Positions 3,314 through 12,111 of a stretch of DNA of 64,000 nucleotides are shown here, one piece after another (position 1 is the first letter of the stretch; each line of letters starts with the position of its first letter). The stretch is from a virus: IMG/VR virus record IMGVR_UViG_3300035704_000001, positions 86,823 to 150,822 of that record. The stretch is one strand, 5' to 3'. The notes beneath the pieces are model-generated. The model was not told the DNA's origin. It was given only the letters and a program-made list of their open reading frames with translations, and did no database searches. Made by a program: the position numbers and the translations under genes.

Positions 3314-5265
3314 CCGGGGCAGGCGCCGCGGCCGCGCGGCTCCTGCTGGCAGGTGACTCGGCCGCCTCCTACGGCGACCGCCAGTCCGGCTCGATCGCGT
3401 TCACCGAGGAGCCGGTGCCGCTGACGGTGTTCGTCCAGGACAAGGGCTACCTGGCCAACCCGCCGCTGTCCCCGGTGCAGTACGAGGCGGTGCTGCATGC
3501 CGAGCGGGTCTATTACCCGTCCGCCTACGAGGTGCTGGCGCAGTCCGCGGACCGCAAGATCCGCGAGTACTGGAAGCAGACCGTCCGGATGGTCAACTTC
3601 CTGGAGCTGGAGTGGGGCAAGGGCGGCGGCAAGGACCACACCTGCCGGATGATCGCCATGCGGGTCTGCTACCTGCTGCTGTGCCTGCGCAGCCCGCAGG
3701 ACTACTACGGCATGCCCGCCCAGGACAGCATCCACTGCCTGAACGTGGCCAGTTCCTCCAAGCAGGCCCAGCGCGCGTTCTTCGCCCCGATGCGGCGCGC
3801 GGTGACCCGCCCCGGGAGCTGGTTCCAGCGCCGGTCGGGGGTGGACATCCTGGACTCGGCCGAGCGGCGCAGCGGGCCGGCCAAGACCACCGCCCTGCTG
3901 GACACCATCCGGTTCGAGCACAACATCGAGGCGGTCTCCGGGCACTCCGACGCGGACAGCCAGGAGGGGCTGAACCTCATGCTCGGCATCGCGGATGAGG
4001 TGGACGCCTTCAAGAGCCGGGCCGAGCTGGCCAAGTCCACCGGCGCCAAGCAGCGCGAGTCATCCAGCTCGGCCGAGTCCATCCTGGAGATGCTGCGCAC
4101 ATCGGCGTCTACCCGGTTTCCCGAGGTGTATAAAAACGTCCACATCAGCTATCCCAGGTACCTCGGGTCAGTGATCCAGCAGCAGGTGGCGAGGGGTAAG
4201 GCTGATATCGCCGCCAAGGGCGACGCCTCGCACTACTACGTGTCCGGCCCGCTGTGCACCTGGGAGGCCAACCCGCGGGTGCCCGGCAAGCAGGCCTTCG
4301 CCGAGGACTACGAGCGGGACCCGGCCATGGCCGAGGCCAAGTACGAGTGCAAGCCCCGCCGGGCCATCAACCCCTACTTCAGCAACGAGCAGGCGCTGCG
4401 GGACTGCACGTACGAGGCCAGCCAGTATCCCGTCGAGGTGGACTACACCCGCGAGGGCGCCACCTGGAAGCCGGTCTATGTCTTCAGCGGCGACTTCTTC
4501 CCGGTCAAGGGCGCGCTGTACGCGATGCACGCCGACCTGTCGGTGACCGGTGACCGGGCCGGCGTCACCCTGGCGCACGTCAAGCGGTGGCAGGACCACA
4601 CGGTGACCGCCACCGAGGAGGACGGCATCGAGGTGCAGCTGACCGAGCGGCGGCCGGTGGTCAAGATCGACTTCACCATCAGCTACTCGGCCAGCGTGGG
4701 CGCGGTGCCGCCGCGGGAGATCCAGATTAGATGGGCCCGGATGCTGGCGCTGGAGCTGCGCCGGCTGGGCTTCCCCATCATGCGGTTCACGTTCGACCAG
4801 TACCAGAGCAAGGATTCCATGCAGATCCTGGAGTCTCACGGCATCGAGACCGACCGGTTCTCCACCGACGTGAGCGAGGAAGGCTGGCGGACCCTGCGGG
4901 ACGTGATGTACGAGGGCCGGCTGGAGATGCCGGCCCGCGAGCTGCTGATCAACGAGCTGCTGGGGCTCTCGCGGCTGCCGAACGGCAAGATCGATCATCT
5001 GGGCGACTCCTCCAAGGACGAGGCCGACAGCCTAGCCGGGGCGGTAGCCGGCGCGCTGGAACTCGGGGGAGCAGAGGACCCGTCCGGCAAGCGCGCGTAC
5101 TTCGGCACGCACAAGTTCTGGGAGCCGGACGGCATAGCCGAGGAGCTGAGCCCGCTCGGGATGCTGCCGGCCCCGGCTATGCTCGGCCCCGGCGAGCCGC
5201 TGCCCGAGTACCGCGGCGGCATGGAGTACAGCGGCGAGCTGAACTACTGGGGGCCCGAGATATGA
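3310..5265 (+). CDS. terL: terminase large subunit
   Basis: Walker A-like WGKGGGKD, Walker B GIADEVD, nuclease-domain acidic motifs MHADLS, FTFDQYQS and SKDEADSLAGA; GTG 3310 in frame with ORF 3043..5265. Confidence 0.9.
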   Translation: MTGAGAAAARLLLAGDSAASYGDRQSGSIAFTEEPVPLTVFVQDKGYLANPPLSPVQYEAVLHAERVYYPSAYEVLAQSADRKIREYWKQTVRMVNFLELEWGKGGGKDHTCRMIAMRVCYLLLCLRSPQDYYGMPAQDSIHCLNVASSSKQAQRAFFAPMRRAVTRPGSWFQRRSGVDILDSAERRSGPAKTTALLDTIRFEHNIEAVSGHSDADSQEGLNLMLGIADEVDAFKSRAELAKSTGAKQRESSSSAESILEMLRTSASTRFPEVYKNVHISYPRYLGSVIQQQVARGKADIAAKGDASHYYVSGPLCTWEANPRVPGKQAFAEDYERDPAMAEAKYECKPRRAINPYFSNEQALRDCTYEASQYPVEVDYTREGATWKPVYVFSGDFFPVKGALYAMHADLSVTGDRAGVTLAHVKRWQDHTVTATEEDGIEVQLTERRPVVKIDFTISYSASVGAVPPREIQIRWARMLALELRRLGFPIMRFTFDQYQSKDSMQILESHGIETDRFSTDVSEEGWRTLRDVMYEGRLEMPARELLINELLGLSRLPNGKIDHLGDSSKDEADSLAGAVAGALELGGAEDPSGKRAYFGTHKFWEPDGIAEELSPLGMLPAPAMLGPGEPLPEYRGGMEYSGELNYWGPEI

Positions 5266-5519
5266 CGCAGATGCCGTTCGAGCGGCTGATGGAGTACGCC
5301 GCCAGCCTGACCGAAGAGGACCGGGACAAGGGCATGGGGGAGCTGGCCGCGCGGGTGGACGAGAAAGCCGCGCGGCTGGCTGATGCCGTCACCGCGGTCC
5401 GGGTCCTAGGCGGAGAACGGACCTACGTCGGCCTGGAGATCCGGGCTGACGAGGAACCGGTCGTGCGGAGGGCCCTGGCCCGGGACCGCGGGACGCCCAT
5501 GAGCGGCTGCTCAGGCTGA
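5262..5519 (+). CDS. hypothetical protein
   Basis: ATGA overlap with terL stop; 3' part of ORF 4731..5519. Confidence 0.5.
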   Translation: MTQMPFERLMEYAASLTEEDRDKGMGELAARVDEKAARLADAVTAVRVLGGERTYVGLEIRADEEPVVRRALARDRGTPMSGCSG

Positions 5520-5738
5520 GAGGACCGCCAGTTCCTCGGAAGTGTGCACCTCGTTGTAGTGCGCGGTCAGTACCGCTGACGCGGCGCCTTTCCTGCGCTG
5601 GTGCACCATCGGGCGGCCGCATACCCTGCAGCGGACGACCGGCAGGTGCCTGGTGTGAACGGCATGGGTTTCGGGGCGTGTCTTCGTCTGTGCCACGTGG
5701 TCATCGAACCACGGGCAGTGACCGCTGACCAGGCCCAA
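5511..5738 (-). CDS. small putative zinc-finger protein (start uncertain)
   Basis: CRVC...HYNEVH (CxxC...HxxxH). Confidence 0.45.
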   Translation of the reverse strand: MGLVSGHCPWFDDHVAQTKTRPETHAVHTRHLPVVRCRVCGRPMVHQRRKGAASAVLTAHYNEVHTSEELAVLSA

Positions 5739-5756: not shown

Positions 5757-5788
5757 TACTTGACACCGGTCAGGTGCCCGCGTAGAGT
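5757..5788 (+). promoter_or_regulatory. sigma70-type promoter of tRNA array with overlapping palindromic operator
   Basis: TTGACA(5760)-17 nt-TAGAGT(5783); TACTTGAC-accg-GTCAGGTG. Confidence 0.7.
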
Positions 5789-5849
5789 GAGACTCACGAC
5801 GCCAAACCGGTTGTCCGATAAGACGGACAGCGGCAAGATGGAGGACATG

Positions 5850-5951
5850 ATGTTCAGGTCACTAGAGCAGCGATACGGGTTCAATCACCCGTGCATCACG
5901 CTGCCTGCGTGGACCGAAGACGCCATGGGCGCCGAGGCGGGACCTGGATAG
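5850..5951 (+). CDS. putative leader peptide (uORF) of tRNA array
   Basis: GGAGG 5840-5844, ATG 5850 (in-frame ATGs also at 5838 and 5847); MFRSLEQRYGFNHPCITLPAWTEDAMGAEAGPG; followed by GC hairpin. Confidence 0.5.
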   Translation: MFRSLEQRYGFNHPCITLPAWTEDAMGAEAGPG

Positions 5952-5970
5952 GGAACAAAAGCCCAGACAG

Positions 5971-6009
5971 GAGCCGCCACCGGACACCGGGAGGCGGCTC
6001 TCAGCTTGT
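5971..6009 (+). terminator. putative attenuator hairpin
   Basis: GAGCCGCC-a-CCGG-aca-CCGG-ga-GGCGGCTC then tcagcttgt (weak U tail). Confidence 0.5.
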
Positions 6010-6029
6010 GAGGGACAACTGAATATCGA

Positions 6030-6102
6030 GGGAGCGTGGCACAGCGGCAACTGCAGTGGCCTCCAAAACCACCAACCGAGGGTTCGAGTCCTTCCGCTCC
6101 TG
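6030..6102 (+). tRNA. tRNA-Trp(CCA)
   Basis: cloverleaf, loop CTCCAAA, TTCGAGT T-loop. Confidence 0.85.
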
Positions 6103-6259
6103 CGACCATCGTCAACGCGAGAGCCGCGACGGTGCCTGTCACCTGGCAGTACTTGAGAACTCCACAGCGTGAGCATCGAGCAGGCTAGCCAGCCTGCTCA
6201 GTTAGACGTGCTGGGCTGGCCGCAACCGGGACTCCCCGGGGAAGCCAGCCCAGCGCACT

Positions 6260-6332
6260 GGGGCTATAGCGCAGCTGGTAGCGCACCTCCATGGCATGGA
6301 GGGGGTCAGGAGTTCGAATCTCCTTAGCTCCA
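6260..6332 (+). tRNA. tRNA-Ala(GGC)
   Basis: GGGGCTA acceptor, loop ATGGCAT. Confidence 0.95.
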
Positions 6333-6434
6333 CTGGTGCTGCTGACATGTGTAGAGGGCCGTGACGGGTACCTCAGCGGCGGTTATGCCGAAGGCCGGGT
6401 GTCTCCGGCGGCAAATAGGCGGCGGCACCAGCCT

Positions 6435-6507
6435 GGGGCTGAAGCACAACTGGTTGTGCATCGGTGTCGCAAGCCGACGGGTGCGGGTTCGAGTCCCGCC
6501 AGCTCCA
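6435..6507 (+). tRNA. tRNA-Ala(CGC)
   Basis: GGGGCTG acceptor, loop GTCGCAA. Confidence 0.88.
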
Positions 6508-6510
6508 CTA

Positions 6511-6635
6511 GCCGGGAGATGCGGGTTCGAATCCCGTCAGCTATGCAGCCGTCGCCTTCAGCAGTGCACCTGGAGGCGGCCCGCTCGGCCGAGCGGGCAG
6601 GCAGCCAGCTGTAGCTCAACTGGCAGAGCCCCGGC
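6511..6635 (+). ncRNA. circularly permuted tRNA-like RNA (YrlA/Y-RNA-like topology)
   Basis: T arm GCGGG-TTCGAAT-CCCGT (6521-6537) precedes D arm TA-GCTC-AACTGGCA-GAGC (6612-6629); CAGCT/AGCTG acceptor-like stem closed by insert; ends pair GCCGG/CCGGC. Confidence 0.6.
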
Positions 6636-6641
6636 GTTAAA

Positions 6642-6716
6642 CGGGAAGTGGCGCAGCTTGGCTAGCGCGCCGCGTTCGGGACGCGGAGGTCGTGGGTTCG
6701 AATCCCGCCTTCCCGA
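6642..6716 (+). tRNA. tRNA-Pro(CGG)
   Basis: CGGGAAG acceptor, loop TTCGGGA. Confidence 0.95.
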
Positions 6717-6760
6717 CTAGGCCGGCAAGCGGGGCCGAGAGGCCAGCGCACGGCCACCAA

Positions 6761-6836
6761 CGGGCTGTGGCGCAGTTTGGCTCAGCGCACCTGTCTGGGG
6801 GACAGGGGGTCATCGGTTCGAATCCGGTCAGCCCGA
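6761..6836 (+). tRNA. tRNA-Pro(GGG)
   Basis: CGGGCTG acceptor, loop CTGGGGG. Confidence 0.92.
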
Positions 6837-6954
6837 CTAGGCAGGTCCGACGCAGGCGCCGCCTTTAAGCGGTTCGCGGCGGAAGCGAGGACGCTCGTCT
6901 CGTGTGGTACCGGGGTACCGGGTTCCCCGGACGACATGGGTGGCCTGCCTTTCA

Positions 6955-7026
6955 CGGGATGTGGTGTAAGGGTCAGCGTGCCTGCTTTGGAAGCAGGAGG
7001 ATGAGGTTCGAGTCCTTGCATCCCGA
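6955..7026 (+). tRNA. tRNA-Pro(TGG)
   Basis: CGGGATG acceptor, loop TTTGGAA. Confidence 0.9.
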
Positions 7027-7092
7027 CTGAGGGGAGGAACCCCCGGCACGGGTAGCGCGGAGGGGTCCGCGTCCGGCCGCCTCCCCCGACAT

Positions 7093-7166
7093 GGAGCTGT
7101 AGCTCAGTTGGTAAGAGCGCCCGTCTGAAAAGCGGGAGGTCGGTGTGTCGAGTACACCTGGCTCCA
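7093..7166 (+). tRNA. tRNA-Phe(GAA)
   Basis: loop CTGAAAA; atypical T-loop GTCGAGT. Confidence 0.82.
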
Positions 7167-7351
7167 CGATGGACTGACGTCTGGCGGCAGCCGAAAGGCC
7201 GAGCAACCGGGTGACTGATCTGGAGGCCTCCAGTACCCAGTAAGCCGCGCAGCTGCAGCTGCGCGGTATCAGCCCACCCCGGGACATCCACTCCGGGGCG
7301 CGAGGACGACCGGCGGACCCAGGCGTTACTGGGGGCTTGAGCCGGGACCCT

Positions 7352-7424
7352 GCGGACGAGTCCCAACTGGCCGGGTACCAGCCCTCCAAGCTGGTTGTTG
7401 CGGGTTCGACTCCCGTCGTCCGCT
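7352..7424 (+). tRNA. tRNA-Gly(TCC), C33 variant
   Basis: GCGGACG acceptor, loop CCTCCAA, U73. Confidence 0.8.
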
Positions 7425-7543
7425 CTTAGGATGTGAAGAGGTACGGGCCCGGATGCTACTCCGGGTTGCGTGCAAGCGGCTGTCGGGTCGCGGCCGGGCG
7501 GGGTGGTGAGGCCGACATCTTGCCACCCCGCGCCGGTTTTCAT

Positions 7544-7615
7544 GCTCCGTTAGCTCAGTGGCAGAGCGGTGGGCTCTTAACCCGCGCGTCCGGGGTCCGA
7601 TTCCCTGACGGAGCA
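7544..7615 (+). tRNA. tRNA-Lys(CTT)
   Basis: loop CTCTTAA. Confidence 0.88.
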
Positions 7616-7621
7616 CAGCAC

Positions 7622-7694
7622 GGGCGGGTAGGCCAGCGGGAGAGTCAGCCGCCCCAAAAGCGGTAGTGCGCGGGTTCGAATCCCGCCCCGCCCA
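7622..7694 (+). tRNA. tRNA-Leu(CAA), short variable loop, C33 variant
   Basis: loop CCCAAAA, canonical T arm, A73. Confidence 0.75.
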
Positions 7695-7792
7695 CGAACG
7701 GATGACACGGCCGTCCTGCGAATCCGTGTCCGGTCCCTCCCTGGGGAGGAACAAGGCCGTTACTCCGGGGAGAGCAAAGACCCCCGGCGCGA

Positions 7793-7864
7793 TGGGGTAT
7801 GGGGTAACCGGCAGCCCGGCGGACTCTGAATCCGTCAGTCTTGGTTCGAATCCAGGTACCTCAG
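7793..7864 (+). tRNA. tRNA-Gln(CTG)
   Basis: TGGGGTA acceptor, loop CTCTGAA. Confidence 0.93.
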
Positions 7865-8335
7865 CTAGCTGGCCGCCGGCCAGCTGGACACGTCGTTCAC
7901 GGCGGTGTGGATCGTGTCGCTCAGCGGGGTCGGCCAGGGCACCGTGGGCAGGATGTAGCCGCGGAGCCGGATGGCGCCGTAGGCCTCGATCAGCCAGCGC
8001 AGGTAGGGCAGCGCCTGGAACTGCATCAGCTGGATCATGTCCGGGCTGGTGTACGGGCCGCCGCCGTCACTGACAGGCGGGCTGGTGGCTTCCAGCTCGC
8101 TGTCGGACGATCCGGTCTCCCCGGTCGAGACGGGCGGGAAGCCCTCGAAGTGCTTCCCGCCGGCGTTGTCGGTGTAGGCGACGACCCAGATCACGGTGTC
8201 ACCGGAGCCGGCCAGGGAGGCCACCTCGACGGGGCTCTGGGCCATGTTGAACATGGCCGCGAAGTTGATCCCGTCACCGGTGTCCGAATTCATGAAGGTG
8301 TCGATCTCGGCGTCAGTCGGAGGGGCGGTAGCCAT
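7865..8335 (-). CDS. hypothetical acidic protein inserted antisense in tRNA array
   Basis: 156-aa ORF filling the gap between tRNA-Gln and tRNA-Thr. Confidence 0.6.
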   Translation of the reverse strand: MATAPPTDAEIDTFMNSDTGDGINFAAMFNMAQSPVEVASLAGSGDTVIWVVAYTDNAGGKHFEGFPPVSTGETGSSDSELEATSPPVSDGGGPYTSPDMIQLMQFQALPYLRWLIEAYGAIRLRGYILPTVPWPTPLSDTIHTAVNDVSSWPAAS

Positions 8336-8384
8336 GGCCCTACCCTGGCCGGCTTCCGCGCCGCGCGCAATTGCGCGAGGTCAC

Positions 8385-8457
8385 GCCGGGGTAGCTCAAA
8401 TGGCAGAGCAGGCGTCTCGTAAACGTCAGGTTGAGGGTTCGATCCCGTCCTCCGGCT
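8385..8457 (+). tRNA. tRNA-Thr(CGT)
   Basis: GCCGGGG acceptor, loop CTCGTAA. Confidence 0.92.
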
Positions 8458-8465
8458 CGATACAC

Positions 8466-8551
8466 GTCCGCGTGGCGGAATAGGCATACGCGCAGCCTTG
8501 AGGTGGCTGTGCTCCTAGCGGAGCGTGAGAGTTCAAGTCTCTCCGCGGACA
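8466..8551 (+). tRNA. tRNA-Leu(GAG)
   Basis: loop TTGAGGT, long variable arm. Confidence 0.93.
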
Positions 8552-8556
8552 CACGG

Positions 8557-8629
8557 TGGGGGTTAGCTCAATAGGCCGAGCAGCGGTCCTTGGTACCGCG
8601 GGATCGGGGTTCGAGTCCCTGGCCCCCAG
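8557..8629 (+). tRNA. tRNA-Gln(TTG), C33 variant
   Basis: TGGGGGT acceptor, loop CCTTGGT. Confidence 0.85.
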
Positions 8630-8875
8630 CAGAATCAATCGCGGGCTGCGTGTCAGGAATCGTCAGGCCGGCGACAGATAGCTAGTAGGACCTGCCCTTC
8701 GGACCGGCGTCCGCGTGTCTTCGGTAAGGACGCGCCGCCCGGATCGGCACCGGGGAAGGGCTCAAGAGGGGGCGGCGCGTTCCGGCCTTCTGCCTCGTGC
8801 GGACGAGACTGGTCTCTCCCCGTGCAGGTTGTCTCTGGTGGTGGTTAGGCCAGCACCGCCGGACAGGGGCGCAAT

Positions 8876-8949
8876 GCGGACGTGGCTCAGTCGGTTACGG
8901 CGCCACGTTGCCAACGTGGAGATCGCGAGTTCGAATCTCGCCGTCCGCA
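8876..8949 (+). tRNA. tRNA-Gly(GCC)
   Basis: GCGGACG acceptor, loop TTGCCAA. Confidence 0.92.
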
Positions 8950-8951
8950 CT

Positions 8952-9005
8952 CAGGGATGAAACAGCAGCGGGCTGTAAAGCCGGTTCGACTCCGGTGATC
9001 CCTGT
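8952..9005 (+). ncRNA. D-armless tRNA-like element
   Basis: CAGGGAT/ATCCCTG stem, ACAGC-agcgg-GCTGT hairpin, T arm GCCGG-TTCGACT-CCGGT. Confidence 0.45.
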
Positions 9006-9009
9006 TCGA

Positions 9010-9092
9010 GCGCTCGTGGCGAAACGGCATACGCGCACGGTTCAGGTCCGTGTGCCCGCGAGGGCGTAAGGGTTCAAATCCCTTCGAGCGCA
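9010..9092 (+). tRNA. tRNA-Leu(CAG)
   Basis: loop TTCAGGT, long variable arm. Confidence 0.93.
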
Positions 9093-9153
9093 CGACATCC
9101 TGGCCGCTTCGACGGCCAGGACGCGGGCCCTGGCTCTGGCCAGGGCCCAGCAC

Positions 9154-9240
9154 GGAGGGCTGGCTCAGCGGCTACAGCGGCGCCCTGCTAAGGCGCAGGG
9201 GCTCCGGCCCTCACGGGTTCGAGTCCCGTGCCCTCCTCCA
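9154..9240 (+). tRNA. tRNA-Ser(GCT)
   Basis: loop CTGCTAA, long variable arm, encoded CCA. Confidence 0.9.
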
Positions 9241-9241
9241 C

Positions 9242-9303
9242 GGGCTGTATGACACCGGCCGTGCCTGCCGGCAAAGGCGGGTTCGCCTCCCGTACGGTCC
9301 ACC
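9242..9303 (+). ncRNA. D-armless tRNA-Ala-like element
   Basis: GGGCTGT/ACGGTCC acceptor with G3-U70 and A73; CCGGC-cgTGCct-GCCGG arm; GCGGG-TTCGCCT-CCCGT T arm. Confidence 0.5.
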
Positions 9304-9305
9304 CT

Positions 9306-9392
9306 GGAGGGTTCGCCTAGTGGCCTATGGCGCACGCCTGGAAAGCGTGTTGGGTGGCGACACCCTCGCGGGTTCGACTCCCGCACCCTCCT
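9306..9392 (+). tRNA. tRNA-Ser(GGA)
   Basis: loop CTGGAAA, long variable arm. Confidence 0.93.
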
Positions 9393-9467
9393 CTGGTCTC
9401 GTTCGTGACTCCGTATTAGGGGTGTGTTACCGTCACGATACGGTCCGTCACGGAAAGGGAGTTCATC

Positions 9468-9593
9468 ATGCGTCGCAGGTTTATCGCCGGGATCATTCTC
9501 CTGGGTGCACTGCTCGGAGGAGCAGCCGCTACCGGAGGGGCTGCTTCCGCAGCCGCTCATTCAGCTCCCGGAACGGTCTATTACCACGGCTGA
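9468..9593 (+). CDS. 41-aa secreted peptide precursor (not in ORF track)
   Basis: GAAAGGGAG SD; MRRRFIAGIILLGALLGGAAATGGAASAAAHSAPGTVYYHG = signal peptide + short C-terminal peptide. Confidence 0.7.
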   Translation: MRRRFIAGIILLGALLGGAAATGGAASAAAHSAPGTVYYHG

Positions 9594-9604
9594 GCTGAAT
9601 TGAC

Positions 9605-9670
9605 CAGGCAGACCCGGGTGTCTTCGAGACGGGGTACCCCGTCAGGCGCACACCGGGTCTGCCTGCTTTC
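9605..9670 (+). terminator. strong hairpin downstream of peptide gene
   Basis: CAGGCAGACCCGG...CCGGGTCTGCCTG followed by ctttc. Confidence 0.5.
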
Positions 9671-9672
9671 CT

Positions 9673-9758
9673 GGGGGGTTCGCCTAGTGGCCTATGGCGC
9701 CGGTCCCGAAAACCGAAGGGGGAAACCCCCGTGGGTTCGAATCCCACACCCCCCTCCA
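9673..9758 (+). tRNA. tRNA-Ser(CGA), C33 variant
   Basis: loop CCCGAAA, variable arm, encoded CCA. Confidence 0.87.
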
Positions 9759-9759
9759 A

Positions 9760-9837
9760 GGGCAGGCAGCATCGACAGGTTCGAGCGCTCGTCTGATAAA
9801 CGAGAGGGTGGAGGTTCAAATCCTCCCCTGCCCACCA
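9760..9837 (+). tRNA. tRNA-Ile(GAT)
   Basis: loop CTGATAA, encoded CCA; irregular D arm. Confidence 0.85.
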
Positions 9838-9838
9838 C

Positions 9839-9913
9839 GGCGGTATAGCTCAGCTGGTCAGAGCGCCCCACTCATAATGGGAGAGGCCGCTGGTTCGAGT
9901 CCAGCTACCGCCA
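9839..9913 (+). tRNA. tRNA-Met(CAT), elongator type
   Basis: GGCGGTA acceptor, loop CTCATAA. Confidence 0.9.
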
Positions 9914-9917
9914 CTCC

Positions 9918-9992
9918 GGGCTGTTAACTCAGTGGCAGAGTCTTCGACTTTTAATCGAGTGGTCCGGGGTTCGATCCCCCGACAGCCCACCA
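9918..9992 (+). tRNA. tRNA-Lys(TTT)
   Basis: loop CTTTTAA, encoded CCA. Confidence 0.92.
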
Positions 9993-9993
9993 G

Positions 9994-10067
9994 GCGCCCG
10001 TAGCTCAGCCGGACAGAGCTGCTGCCTTCTAAGCAGCGGGCCGCGGGTTCGAATCCTGCCGGGCGCG
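9994..10067 (+). tRNA. tRNA-Arg(TCT)
   Basis: GCGCCCG acceptor, loop CTTCTAA. Confidence 0.95.
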
Positions 10068-10152
10068 CTAGCTGAGTGGTAATAATGGATGTGCCGGGCC
10101 TGGATGTGTGGGTTCCCTCCGGGGCTTCTCGCTTCCCGGGTCCGGTCTGTAT

Positions 10153-10227
10153 CGTCCCGTGGAGCAGCCAGGAGTGTTCGCCGCTCTCTCAAAGCGGAGG
10201 TCGAGGGTTCAAATCCCTTCGGGACGA
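10153..10227 (+). tRNA. tRNA-Glu(CTC)
   Basis: loop CTCTCAA. Confidence 0.9.
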
Positions 10228-10291
10228 CATCACGGGCTAGTTCCCGGCCAATGTGCCGGGGAGCCGAGGCCGGCGGTCCCACCGGCCATCA

Positions 10292-10365
10292 GGCCCCATG
10301 GAGCTAAAAGAGCAGGCCACCGCCCTTTCAAGGCGGGGGTGCGGGTTCGAGTCCCGCTGGGGCTG
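10292..10365 (+). tRNA. tRNA-Glu(TTC)
   Basis: GGCCCCA acceptor, loop CTTTCAA; irregular D arm. Confidence 0.82.
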
Positions 10366-10366
10366 C

Positions 10367-10442
10367 TGCGGAGGGGGTTCGGTCACCCGACTAGGCCTCA
10401 TAAGCCTGGGGACGCAGGTTCAAATCCTTGCCTCCGCTACCA
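10367..10442 (+). tRNA. tRNA-fMet-like (CAT)
   Basis: unpaired 1-72 position, loop CTCATAA, encoded CCA; degenerate D arm. Confidence 0.75.
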
Positions 10443-10443
10443 A

Positions 10444-10515
10444 TCCGGTATCCGTTAATCGGTAAACGAGCTGACCGTTAATCAGCCCCTCTTGGTTCGA
10501 GTCCAAGTACCGGAG
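10444..10515 (+). tRNA. tRNA-Asn(GTT), C33 variant
   Basis: TCCGGTA acceptor, loop CCGTTAA. Confidence 0.85.
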
Positions 10516-10529
10516 CGCAGGTAAATCAG

Positions 10530-10604
10530 GAGCCAGTGGAGCAGCTTGGAGTGCTCGTCTCCCCGTCAAGGAGAAGACCGCGGGTTCAAATCCCGTCTGG
10601 CCCG
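10530..10604 (+). tRNA. tRNA-Asp(GTC), C33 variant
   Basis: loop CCGTCAA, Asp-type D arm GGAGCAGCTTGGAGTGCTC. Confidence 0.87.
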
Positions 10605-10605
10605 C

Positions 10606-10798
10606 TCAGAACAGCCCGTGGCCGCCGGCCTTGGCCCGGCGCATCCGCTCGCGGCTCTCGTAGCTGCCGAGCTGGTTGAAGCCCCAGACCCGGCCCATGC
10701 GCATCCCGATGGTCAGCGCGATGACGGCAATGATGATCGCGCCGACCGGGCCGAACAGGGCCCAGGCGACGATGAGGAGGAGAACTCCGAGCAGCACG
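10606..10798 (-). CDS. small membrane protein inside tRNA array (start uncertain)
   Basis: VLLGVLLLIVAWALFGPVGAIIIAVIALTIG hydrophobic hairpin in ORF 10606..10890. Confidence 0.4.
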
Positions 10799-10833
10799 TC
10801 ATTGACGGTACATAACTGATAGCAGTTTGACCA

Positions 10834-10905
10834 GGGCGGGTGGCGCAGCGGGAGCGCGCTTCCCCGACAAGGAAGAGGCCGCCAGTTCAATCCTGGCCCC
10901 GCCCA
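10834..10905 (+). tRNA. tRNA-Val(GAC), C33 variant
   Basis: loop CCGACAA. Confidence 0.87.
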
Positions 10906-10951
10906 CGCTTGACACCAGCAGTAGTCAGTAGGTTACTGTTGGCGAGTTCAA

Positions 10952-11024
10952 GCGCTCCTAGCTCAGCGGATAGAGCGGCCGACTACGGATCGGCAGGTGC
11001 GGGGTTCGAGTCCCTGGGAGCGCG
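10952..11024 (+). tRNA. tRNA-Arg(ACG)
   Basis: loop CTACGGA. Confidence 0.93.
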
Positions 11025-11088
11025 CGAGACCCCGGTCCTGCAACGGCGCAAGCCGGCCGGCAGATCCGGCGCCGGGGTCCGTCTTTCA

Positions 11089-11128
11089 GGGCGCATAGCT
11101 CAGCAGGAGAGCGGCTGGTACAGTGCCA
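11089..11128 (+). pseudogene. 5' half of a tRNA (remnant) directly upstream of endonuclease gene
   Basis: GGGCGCA-TA-GCTC-AGCAGGA-GAGC acceptor 5' strand and D arm, no T arm follows. Confidence 0.55.
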
Positions 11129-11149
11129 ACAGGTCTGTATGCTGGGATA

Positions 11150-11560
11150 GTGAACGGTAATACGAATAGCAACAGCGTCGGTGCTCGAACCGAGGGCATG
11201 ATCATGGCGGCGTTGCTTCGTGCAGGTAAGACTGTCCTTACCCCGTTCGGGGTCCAGCGCTATGACCTGGTATTCGAGGATGAATCAGGATTCCACCGGG
11301 TTCAGTGCAAGACAGGCCGTCTAAAGGACGGGGCTATAGTGTTCGAGACCTGCAGCCGCCACAGTAGAACACTTCAGCGAACCTCATACCACGGGCACGC
11401 GGACTTCTTCGGCGTGTACTACCCGGGAGGGGATGCTTGTTACTTGATACCGATCGAATTGGTGGGTCAGACGCAGGGCAGTATCCGGATCGTGCAGACG
11501 AAGAACAGCCAGGCCAAAGGCGTCTTGAACGCCGAGCAATTTGTAATAATGTCCAGTTAG
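11150..11560 (+). CDS. PD-(D/E)XK homing-type endonuclease (I-Ssp6803I-like family)
   Basis: PFG..RYDLVFE...RVQCKTGR...DFFGVY...YLIP; lower GC than flanks; TATGCT -10 then GTG 11150. Confidence 0.85.
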   Translation: MNGNTNSNSVGARTEGMIMAALLRAGKTVLTPFGVQRYDLVFEDESGFHRVQCKTGRLKDGAIVFETCSRHSRTLQRTSYHGHADFFGVYYPGGDACYLIPIELVGQTQGSIRIVQTKNSQAKGVLNAEQFVIMSS

Positions 11561-11625
11561 CTCAGCGGGAGAGCGCTGCCCCCACACGGCAGGCGTCGGG
11601 AGTTCGACCCTCTCACTGGACACCA
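11551..11625 (+). tRNA. tRNA-Val(CAC), C33 variant
   Basis: loop CCCACAC, encoded CCA; overlaps endonuclease stop. Confidence 0.87.
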
Positions 11626-11626
11626 T

Positions 11627-11699
11627 GGTGGTTGTAGCTCAAGGTAGAGCCCGGGGTTGTGAGCCCCGGAGGTGCGGGTCGTACCCGTCAATCACCCCA
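11627..11699 (+). tRNA. tRNA-His(GTG)
   Basis: G-1, loop TTGTGAG, C73, encoded CCA; atypical T-loop. Confidence 0.85.
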
Positions 11700-11700
11700 A

Positions 11701-11781
11701 GGCGGAGTAACCCTAGAGGCAAGGGAGCGGCCTGTAAAGCCGTGGTCTTCGATACGGCAGGTTCGATTCCTGCGTCCGCCA
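11701..11781 (+). tRNA. tRNA-Tyr(GTA)
   Basis: loop CTGTAAA, variable arm. Confidence 0.88.
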
Positions 11782-11821
11782 CTGCACAGCGATCTACCGG
11801 AGTTCTTCCGGGGATCTACCA

Positions 11822-11893
11822 GCGCCCGTAGCTCAGGGGATAGAGCTGCGGCCTCCGGAGCCGTGAGCGGGAGTTCGAATCTCTCCGGGCGCG
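11822..11893 (+). tRNA. tRNA-Arg(CCG)
   Basis: GCGCCCG acceptor, loop CTCCGGA. Confidence 0.94.
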
Positions 11894-11904
11894 CGTACGA
11901 TAAT

Positions 11905-11979
11905 GGCGGTGTGGCCGAGTGGCCCAGGCGTGCGCCTGCAAAGCGCACTACACGAGTTCGATTCTCGTCTCCGCCTCCA
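11905..11979 (+). tRNA. tRNA-Cys(GCA)
   Basis: loop CTGCAAA, U73, encoded CCA. Confidence 0.93.
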
Positions 11980-12013
11980 ACCAAGAAGGGACTCCCCGAA
12001 GGGAGTCCCTTGA

Positions 12014-12086
12014 TGGCCCGTGGTCCAGCGGACACGGATAGCTGCCTCCTAAGCGGCGGACGCGGGTTCGAATCCCGCCGGGCCAG
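12014..12086 (+). tRNA. tRNA-Arg(CCT)
   Basis: loop CTCCTAA. Confidence 0.88.
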
Positions 12087-12111
12087 CCCAGGTGCTCACG
12101 CTGCGGCAGTA

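Follow-up and report, generated by a model that had tools for sequence, protein, structure and literature searches.

In the leader of the bacterial gene whiB7, a short upstream open reading frame (uORF) acts as a composition-dependent sensor for the depletion of 18 of the 20 amino acids (PMC10274678). The whiB7 uORF of M. smegmatis contains every amino acid but Cys, and this composition sets which starvations are sensed (PMC10274678). Loss of the start codon raises read-through and expression (PMC10274678; PMC11550727), and cleavage of a Ser tRNA by a tRNase toxin leads to whiB7 activation (PMC10287673). That a uORF can act as a general sensor is not a new idea, as the whiB7 uORF of bacteria is an established case (PMC10274678). 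To explain the presence and the role of large tRNA arrays in phages, several ideas have been offered, namely codon-usage matching, compensation for the decay of host tRNAs and evasion of anticodon nucleases. Here we describe the leader of the tRNA array in a family of uncultured soil actinophages, for which we regard it as rather likely that it is a ribosome-mediated attenuator with whiB7/wblC-like logic, which senses general translation speed and gates the only tRNA array of the phage. The tRNAs would then probably be made mainly when ribosomes run slowly.

The window, that is the whole stretch of 64,000 nucleotides analysed here, is part of a 150.8 kb record of an uncultured virus with 70.7% G+C. 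Among named phages, its terminase is nearest to that of Microbacterium phage Magritte (44.5%), and Streptomyces and Gordonia phages come next. Every tRNA of the genome sits in one array and a leader of the kind described below occurs once in the genome. The 36 tRNA genes counted in the first-pass annotation are matched by ARAGORN (36) and nearly so by Rfam (35). The gene next after the array is encoded on the minus strand, which indicates that the array is the only unit served by this promoter and leader. Only one sigma-70-like site was found between positions 5000 and 13000, namely the array promoter, and the gap between hairpin and tRNA-Trp of about 25-35 nt contains no promoter-like site. 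The elements that the first-pass annotation had described between promoter and first tRNA were all found where it had placed them, so that we regard this observation as confirmed. Their coordinates are summarized in Table 1.

Table 1. Features of the leader and the tRNA array in the window.
Feature	Position	Strand	Remarks
Promoter	5760-5788	+	-35 TTGACA 5760-5765, 17-nt spacer, -10 TAGAGT 5783-5788
5' untranslated leader	5795-5839	+	small hairpin at about 5808-5834, motif CCGATAAGAC at 5815-5824
Shine-Dalgarno (SD) sequence GGAGG	5840-5844	+	SD-like purine run before the start in all SD-bearing relatives
uORF, 34 codons, tandem ATG-ATG starts	5847-5951	+	stop TAG 5949-5951
P1, long imperfect hairpin formed by the uORF body	5853-5918	+	AGG-TCA codons 5856-5861, CTGCC 5901-5905
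Region 2, antiterminator 5' strand	5936-5946	+	GGYGG core exactly 8 nt before the stop codon
Region 3, CCGCC core	5968-5978	+	common to antiterminator (3' strand) and terminator (5' arm)
Terminator-like hairpin and U-poor tail	5971-6009	+	lower stem, 5971-5978 paired to 5993-6000; upper stem, 5980-5983 paired to 5987-5990; tail, 6001-6009
Conserved box GACAACT...	6014-6026	+	between hairpin and tRNA-Trp; in most leaders
tRNA array, 36 tRNA genes, tRNA-Trp first	6030-12088	+	regulated unit

The promoter, in the form TTGAC-N4-GTCAA followed by TAnnnT, is kept in every relative with upstream sequence. The -35 element of the window lies within a palindrome (TTGAC-N4-GTCA, 5760-5773) that is shared by all of these relatives and could serve a dimeric repressor as operator, in which case the array would be controlled at a second level. 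Divergent from the promoter is a 75-codon ORF on the minus strand (5511-5738) with a CxxC motif and several His residues, which could encode a small zinc-binding regulator or could be spurious. In several relatives the motif CCGATAA(A/G)AC is found in the loop of the small hairpin of the 5' leader; the leaders L079 and L160 do not have it. In these two leaders the 5' untranslated part, roughly 50 nt in the window, is missing altogether and the -10 element ends 6 nt upstream of the ATG, which suggests that their uORF is probably leaderless. The uORF of the window has three in-frame ATGs at 5838 (an alternative start), 5847 and 5850, and the last of them, 5 nt after the SD sequence, is the start chosen in the first-pass annotation. 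The frame stays open further upstream to 5601, but the promoter lies inside that stretch.

Two sequence boxes follow the hairpin. The box directly before tRNA-Trp (Table 1) is duplicated in L180 and missing in L005 and L186, and it partly resembles a second box at 6153-6181, between tRNA-Trp and tRNA-Ala; it is a candidate processing site or a candidate second antitermination box. The box at 6153-6181 is closely similar to the leader element of actinobacterial rrn operons and is retained in many relatives. Its 19-nt consensus has one exact match in the genome of Streptomyces lactacystinicus, about 165 nt upstream of the 5' end of the 16S rRNA. It may bring an rrn-type antitermination complex onto transcripts once they have passed the attenuator.

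A terminase search of IMG/VR yielded 12 loci with 73-78% identity. The order terminase, small ORF, promoter, uORF, hairpin, tRNA-Trp and array is the same in 11 of them, whereas the twelfth has neither array nor leader. For further members we used DNA patterns derived from invariant positions, which did not require an open frame, and obtained two divergent IMG/VR leaders (L079 and L160) and nine new distinct leaders on metagenome contigs. The total set comprises 21 distinct leaders from IMG/VR and metagenomes, to which three from SRA assemblies were added via a peptide HMM. A search of 1.8 billion proteins with a profile of the 21 peptides returned 15 further cluster representatives. In the three HMM-found leaders for which DNA was fetched, we found the same promoter, uORF, switch and box, and tRNA-Trp and the array come next in both contigs that reach far enough. 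An array that begins with tRNA-Trp follows every leader with downstream sequence. One of the HMM-found loci has different upstream genes, which indicates that the leader module travels with the array. The attenuator layout proposed in the first-pass annotation is thus present in every relative with an array and absent from the one close relative without it, and we regard the proposal as supported.

Outside this family the search was negative. The leader has no blastn match among 50,697 phage records, and Magritte has a 24-tRNA array elsewhere in its genome, where a HicA-like gene directly adjoins the first tRNA and the leader is missing. In remoter terminase relatives (26-58% identity) no tRNAs are adjacent to the terminase. 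A pattern scan of 185,579 species genomes gave five bacterial matches, all of them chance hits with a closed frame, so that no prophage or host copy with that pattern was found.

Some members of the family show peculiarities around the array. In L002 an ORF similar to HNH endonucleases (about 6500-6870) is inserted between the terminator of the attenuator and tRNA-Trp, and its expression would therefore be under attenuator control. An odd tRNA-like gene is located just upstream of the array promoter in L160 (2440-2532) and L079 (about 120-210); ARAGORN reports it as an undetermined tRNA with the four-base anticodon aaac. Furthermore, the tRNA-Trp-like gene after the leader of L010, L011 and L013 (about 6640-6720) is missed by ARAGORN, although it aligns with the tRNA-Trp of the others, and may have an unusual anticodon stem or an insertion.

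A comparison of the 21 leaders reveals a short promoter-proximal ORF with its start signals upstream of the tRNA genes, and its boundaries are strictly kept. All 21 uORFs start with ATG-RTG, that is ATG followed by ATG or GTG, and all end with TAG or TAA exactly 8 nt after the invariant GGYGG. Between these points the length takes seven different values from 31 to 38 codons and the frame remains constant. We assume from these signals that the uORF is translated in vivo. TGA is the commonest stop codon in high-GC genomes; among the leaders found without a stop-codon constraint, 13 of 13 end with TAG or TAA and never with TGA, which may reflect RNA structure or a need for RF1-type termination kinetics. 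The peptide itself drifts. Within clades we counted 7 synonymous and 41 non-synonymous codon changes, with substitutions distributed 24/25/18 over the three codon positions, and the identity between clades is only 24-45%. In line with this, searches of Pfam and PHROG with the uORF peptide gave no family match.

What the frame retains is amino-acid diversity. The first-pass annotation had drawn attention to 18 different amino acids in the opening codons of the uORF, with only K and V absent, and for the first 24-25 codons this has a probability of about 0.0006-0.002 in two null models. The 21 peptides contain 17-20 distinct amino acids (18 in the window uORF), and seven of them contain all 20, compared with null means of about 13-15 and P values of 0.0002-0.09 per leader. 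In detail, windows of proteins of the same phage have a mean of 13-14 distinct amino acids, composition-matched random ORFs 13.5-15.4 and the other short ORFs of the window 13.1. The uORF frame has a mean of 18.8, compared with 12.3-15.5 in the five other frames of the same DNA, and is strictly the highest of the six in all 21 leaders; the mean of the 15 additional HMM representatives is also 18.8. Even the first N-9 codons, which would form the sensing part, encode 15-18 distinct residues. The place of repeated regulatory codons is thus taken by a frame-specific and nearly complete amino-acid coverage, and the "pan-amino-acid" character originally noticed in one sequence turns out to be a family trait that is retained while the peptide sequence changes. 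A frame-specific diversity in combination with an unconserved peptide argues that selection acts on what the frame encodes, and more precisely on variety and not on sequence.

The rare codons pointed out in the first-pass annotation (AGG, TCA, CTA, CGA, AAT, CCT and GAA) are indeed rare, as each of them makes up 1-14% of its synonymous family in the phage genes. TCA occurs in all 21 leaders, sometimes twice and at differing codon positions, AGG in 20 and CGA in 18; in phage genes TCA accounts for 0.9 per thousand codons. These codons may have been selected for slowness. As AGG, TCA and CGA lie in the 5' strand of P1, RNA structure may explain a part of their conservation. The array of the window decodes 52 of the 61 codons, and TCA, CTA and ACC are unreadable; a Ser-TGA tRNA was not found in the two full arrays examined. 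The possibility that the uORF codons mirror the anticodons of the array was rejected, because the array reads 52 of 61 codons and three codons of the uORF are uncovered. The feedback between array and leader is incomplete, since TCA is present in every leader and yet, like CTA and ACC, is not decoded by the array of the window.

To describe the switch, we used per-sequence folds and anchored registers, since indels shift P1 and the upper stem out of register in the whole MAFFT alignment and RNAalifold recovers no more than the conserved cores from it. In the 12 leaders that were folded, the terminator-like hairpin has an energy of -25 to -32 kcal/mol. All 21 leaders share its lower stem, with 98% of the alignment cells paired compared with 36-61% in slid controls, and its upper stem covaries, that is, the sequence differs between clades and the pairing is retained. 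In most relatives a run of 5-6 T follows the hairpin, but not in the window clade and the L010 clade. The tail in the window is poor in U (TCAGCTTGT), and termination in these two clades may therefore be weak or factor-dependent. In general, the hairpin is presumed to terminate transcription in vivo.

The mutually exclusive pairing of region 2 with region 3, on which the first-pass annotation had based its proposal, is the minimum-energy fold of 5925-6012. Across the alignment, 85.5% of the cells of this antiterminator are paired, compared with 33-54% in slid controls. Its covariation score is 0.214 and that of shuffled alignments 0.177 (9 of 500 shuffles reached the observed value), changes on both sides occur in one pair only, and U-A, C-G and U-G alternatives are found in the anchored register beside the core. 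As this covariation is modest, the antiterminator is supported mostly by conservation and register. Of the two traits that the first-pass annotation had named for homologous leaders, the diversity of the uORF is conserved in all 21, but the covariation of the helix is modest.

In the nascent RNA, before the 3' arm of the hairpin emerges, the pairing of region 2 with region 3 is the minimum-energy fold in 19 of 21 leaders. We repeated the folding with a ribosome mask of 29 nt centred on the P-site codon. In these 19 leaders the antiterminator is formed without the mask or with the P-site at codons 1 to N-8, whereas a ribosome on any of the last 8 codons abolishes it and sets the terminator arm free, so that the masked folds reproduce the logic suggested in the first-pass annotation. 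A ribosome at the stop codon covers region 2 and leaves free the 5' arm of the hairpin, which starts 14-20 nt further on. As expected for an attenuator, the antiterminator in these folds excludes the terminator and depends on the position of the ribosome. In the full leader the forced antiterminator and the forced terminator are only -7 to +2 kcal/mol apart (20 of 21 leaders), and as the equilibrium in most cases slightly favours the terminator state, the outcome without a ribosome hinges on folding kinetics. A trp-like 1:2 pairing of CTGCC with GGYGG, detected by RNAalifold, exists, but is beaten by the 2:3 pairing in the masked folds.

In 19 of 19 leaders, the uORF body itself is predicted to fold as a single long hairpin (P1, with z -0.9 to -5.8). 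The sequence of its apical stems varies by clade, and its base pairs the start codons with the segment just before region 2. In this base helix, the change of the second codon from ATG to GTG is matched by a change from U to C in the partner strand. Pairing of the start codon, which is frequent in the base of P1, could limit translation. It may also be speculated that P1 causes polymerase pausing or confines ribosome loading to a co-transcriptional window.

Taken together, we propose the following mechanism. The host RNA polymerase would initiate at the consensus promoter and transcribe the uORF of 31-38 codons. At full translation speed the leading ribosome would be on the last 8 codons or the stop codon by the time the hairpin is transcribed. 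In this position it would cover the GGYGG of region 2, so that the CCGCC of region 3 could pair with region 4, the 3' arm of the hairpin, and transcription would stop about 25 nt before tRNA-Trp. If the ribosome were delayed in codons 1 to N-8 or not loaded at all, region 2 would pair with region 3 first, the terminator would be blocked and the polymerase would read into the array. Nearly all amino acids are represented in the sensing stretch, so that the array should be induced when almost any charged tRNA runs short or when translation is under general stress, and the new tRNAs would restore translation speed and thereby close a feedback loop. This direction of the response to stalling is the one we presume from the predicted folds. 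Host anticodon nucleases may be the natural trigger.

The arguments for a translated sensor have to be weighed against the possibility that the frame is incidental to a GC-rich sequence and that the region acts as RNA only, for example as a leader for processing or stability of the precursor or as a target of a protein or a small RNA, with the hairpin as processing or pause site. The formation of one long and significantly stable hairpin by the uORF body in all leaders folded is compatible with such an element, and so are the lack of a third-position bias in the substitutions and the pairing of the start codon in the base of P1, which shows covariation. Moreover, the +2 frame is also without a stop in 12 of the 21 leaders, so that the openness of a frame is weak evidence in this GC-rich DNA. 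However, an untranslated RNA leaves unexplained why a single frame carries the amino-acid diversity in each of the 21 leaders, and it does not account for the SD sequence, the tandem starts and the fixed distance of TAG or TAA from region 2 across seven ORF lengths, nor for the leaderless-start geometry of L079 and L160. The leader RNA (5795-6010) also has no match to an Rfam family at E values up to 1, T-box included, and we consider an RNA-only element unlikely.

The conserved rare codons near the start of the uORF (AGG, TCA and CGA) raise the question whether the leader monitors how well one or a few tRNAs for rare codons are supplied and not the supply of all amino acids. The presence of the very rare TCA in every leader, with AGG and CGA close behind, would fit such a specific attenuator, as would phage arrays without a tRNA able to read TCA. 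Against this, the three codons lie in the conserved 5' strand of P1 and may be kept for structural reasons, the runs of a regulatory codon that characterize classical specific attenuators are absent, and the retention of 17-20 amino acids in every leader would have no explanation; a specific attenuator thus seems quite improbable to us. Even less probable, and in our opinion very much so, is the reading that the uORF is the gene of a small protein and has a terminator of its own, with a peptide that acts in trans and a downstream array that is expressed by leak-through or in response to other signals. Gene callers do predict the uORF in many assemblies and trans-acting leader peptides are known (peTrpL, PMC7298713), but the ratio of synonymous to non-synonymous changes and the low identity between clades give no sign of purifying selection on the peptide, it belongs to none of the Pfam or PHROG families searched, and the short gap between hairpin and tRNA-Trp offers the array no promoter-like site of its own.

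We therefore prefer the ribosome-mediated attenuator as explanation. A literature search yielded no publication in which tRNA genes, of phages or of other origin, are preceded by a leader-peptide attenuator, in agreement with the first-pass annotation, which knew of no description for a phage tRNA array. The kind of element, a leader-peptide attenuator, is known; the target, tRNA genes, would be new, and the leader belongs to a separate family of high-GC actinophages with its own sequence. If the attenuator works as proposed, the phage measures the decoding capacity of the cell and supplies tRNAs on demand, leader-peptide attenuation reaches beyond enzyme and regulator genes to tRNA genes, and the leader would represent a compact and portable translation-stress sensor for actinobacteria. 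More tentatively, and with a chance that we put at somewhat less than even, large phages of unrelated lineages may have independently evolved a uORF with nearly all 20 amino acids together with a terminator switch as a sensor of translation speed. The replacement tRNA set would be switched on when host decoding falls, for instance by tRNA cleavage through host defence nucleases or by host tRNA decay, and off on recovery. The actinophage family described here would then be the high-GC, whiB7-like version, in which the attenuator is followed by an rrn-type antitermination box for transcription through 6 kb of untranslated array.

A comparison with known attenuators shows what the phage leader shares with them and where it differs. 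T-box riboswitches also couple tRNA status to read-through via the choice between terminator and antiterminator, but they bind uncharged tRNA directly and without translation, whereas the phage leader conserves a presumably translated frame and has no T-box match. Like the classical leaders of trpL, hisL, pheL and the thr and ilv operons, it is short and presumably translated, can form either a 2:3 or a 3:4 hairpin and would set read-through by the position of the ribosome. The classical leaders regulate biosynthetic enzymes and have one or a few regulatory codons arranged in runs, in contrast to the maximally diverse codons and the tRNA genes of the phage. Furthermore, an untranslated trp leader terminates via 1:2 pairing, whereas the predicted state of the phage leader without a ribosome is the antiterminator. 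The mycobacterial attenuators with leaderless polycysteine short ORFs (bioRxiv 10.1101/834739) are likewise actinobacterial and have the ORF at the 5' end of the transcript, as is likely also for L079 and L160, but they are specific for Cys and act on operonic protein genes.

The logic proposed for the phage leader is that of whiB7/wblC. As described by Lee, Lee & Roe 2022 (cited in PMC11550727) and by Poulton et al. (PMC10274678), these leaders have a promoter-proximal uORF followed by a rho-independent terminator, and the antiterminator shares sequence with the end of the uORF. In both cases full translation leads to termination and impaired or absent translation to read-through, which for the phage leader is a prediction; the uORF is compositionally broad in both, and the host phylum is probably the same. 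In contrast to whiB7/wblC, the phage leader precedes tRNA-Trp and a tRNA array in every case and not a transcription factor gene. Its uORF is shorter than that of whiB7, with the whole diversity of 17-20 amino acids packed into 31-38 codons, and contains 6-17% Ala (mean 11%, 21 leaders) compared with 25-40% for whiB7 (PMC10274678). With tRNAs downstream and without the Ala-rich composition, the phage leader is not a whiB7 leader, and the two are likened by layout and logic and not by sequence homology.
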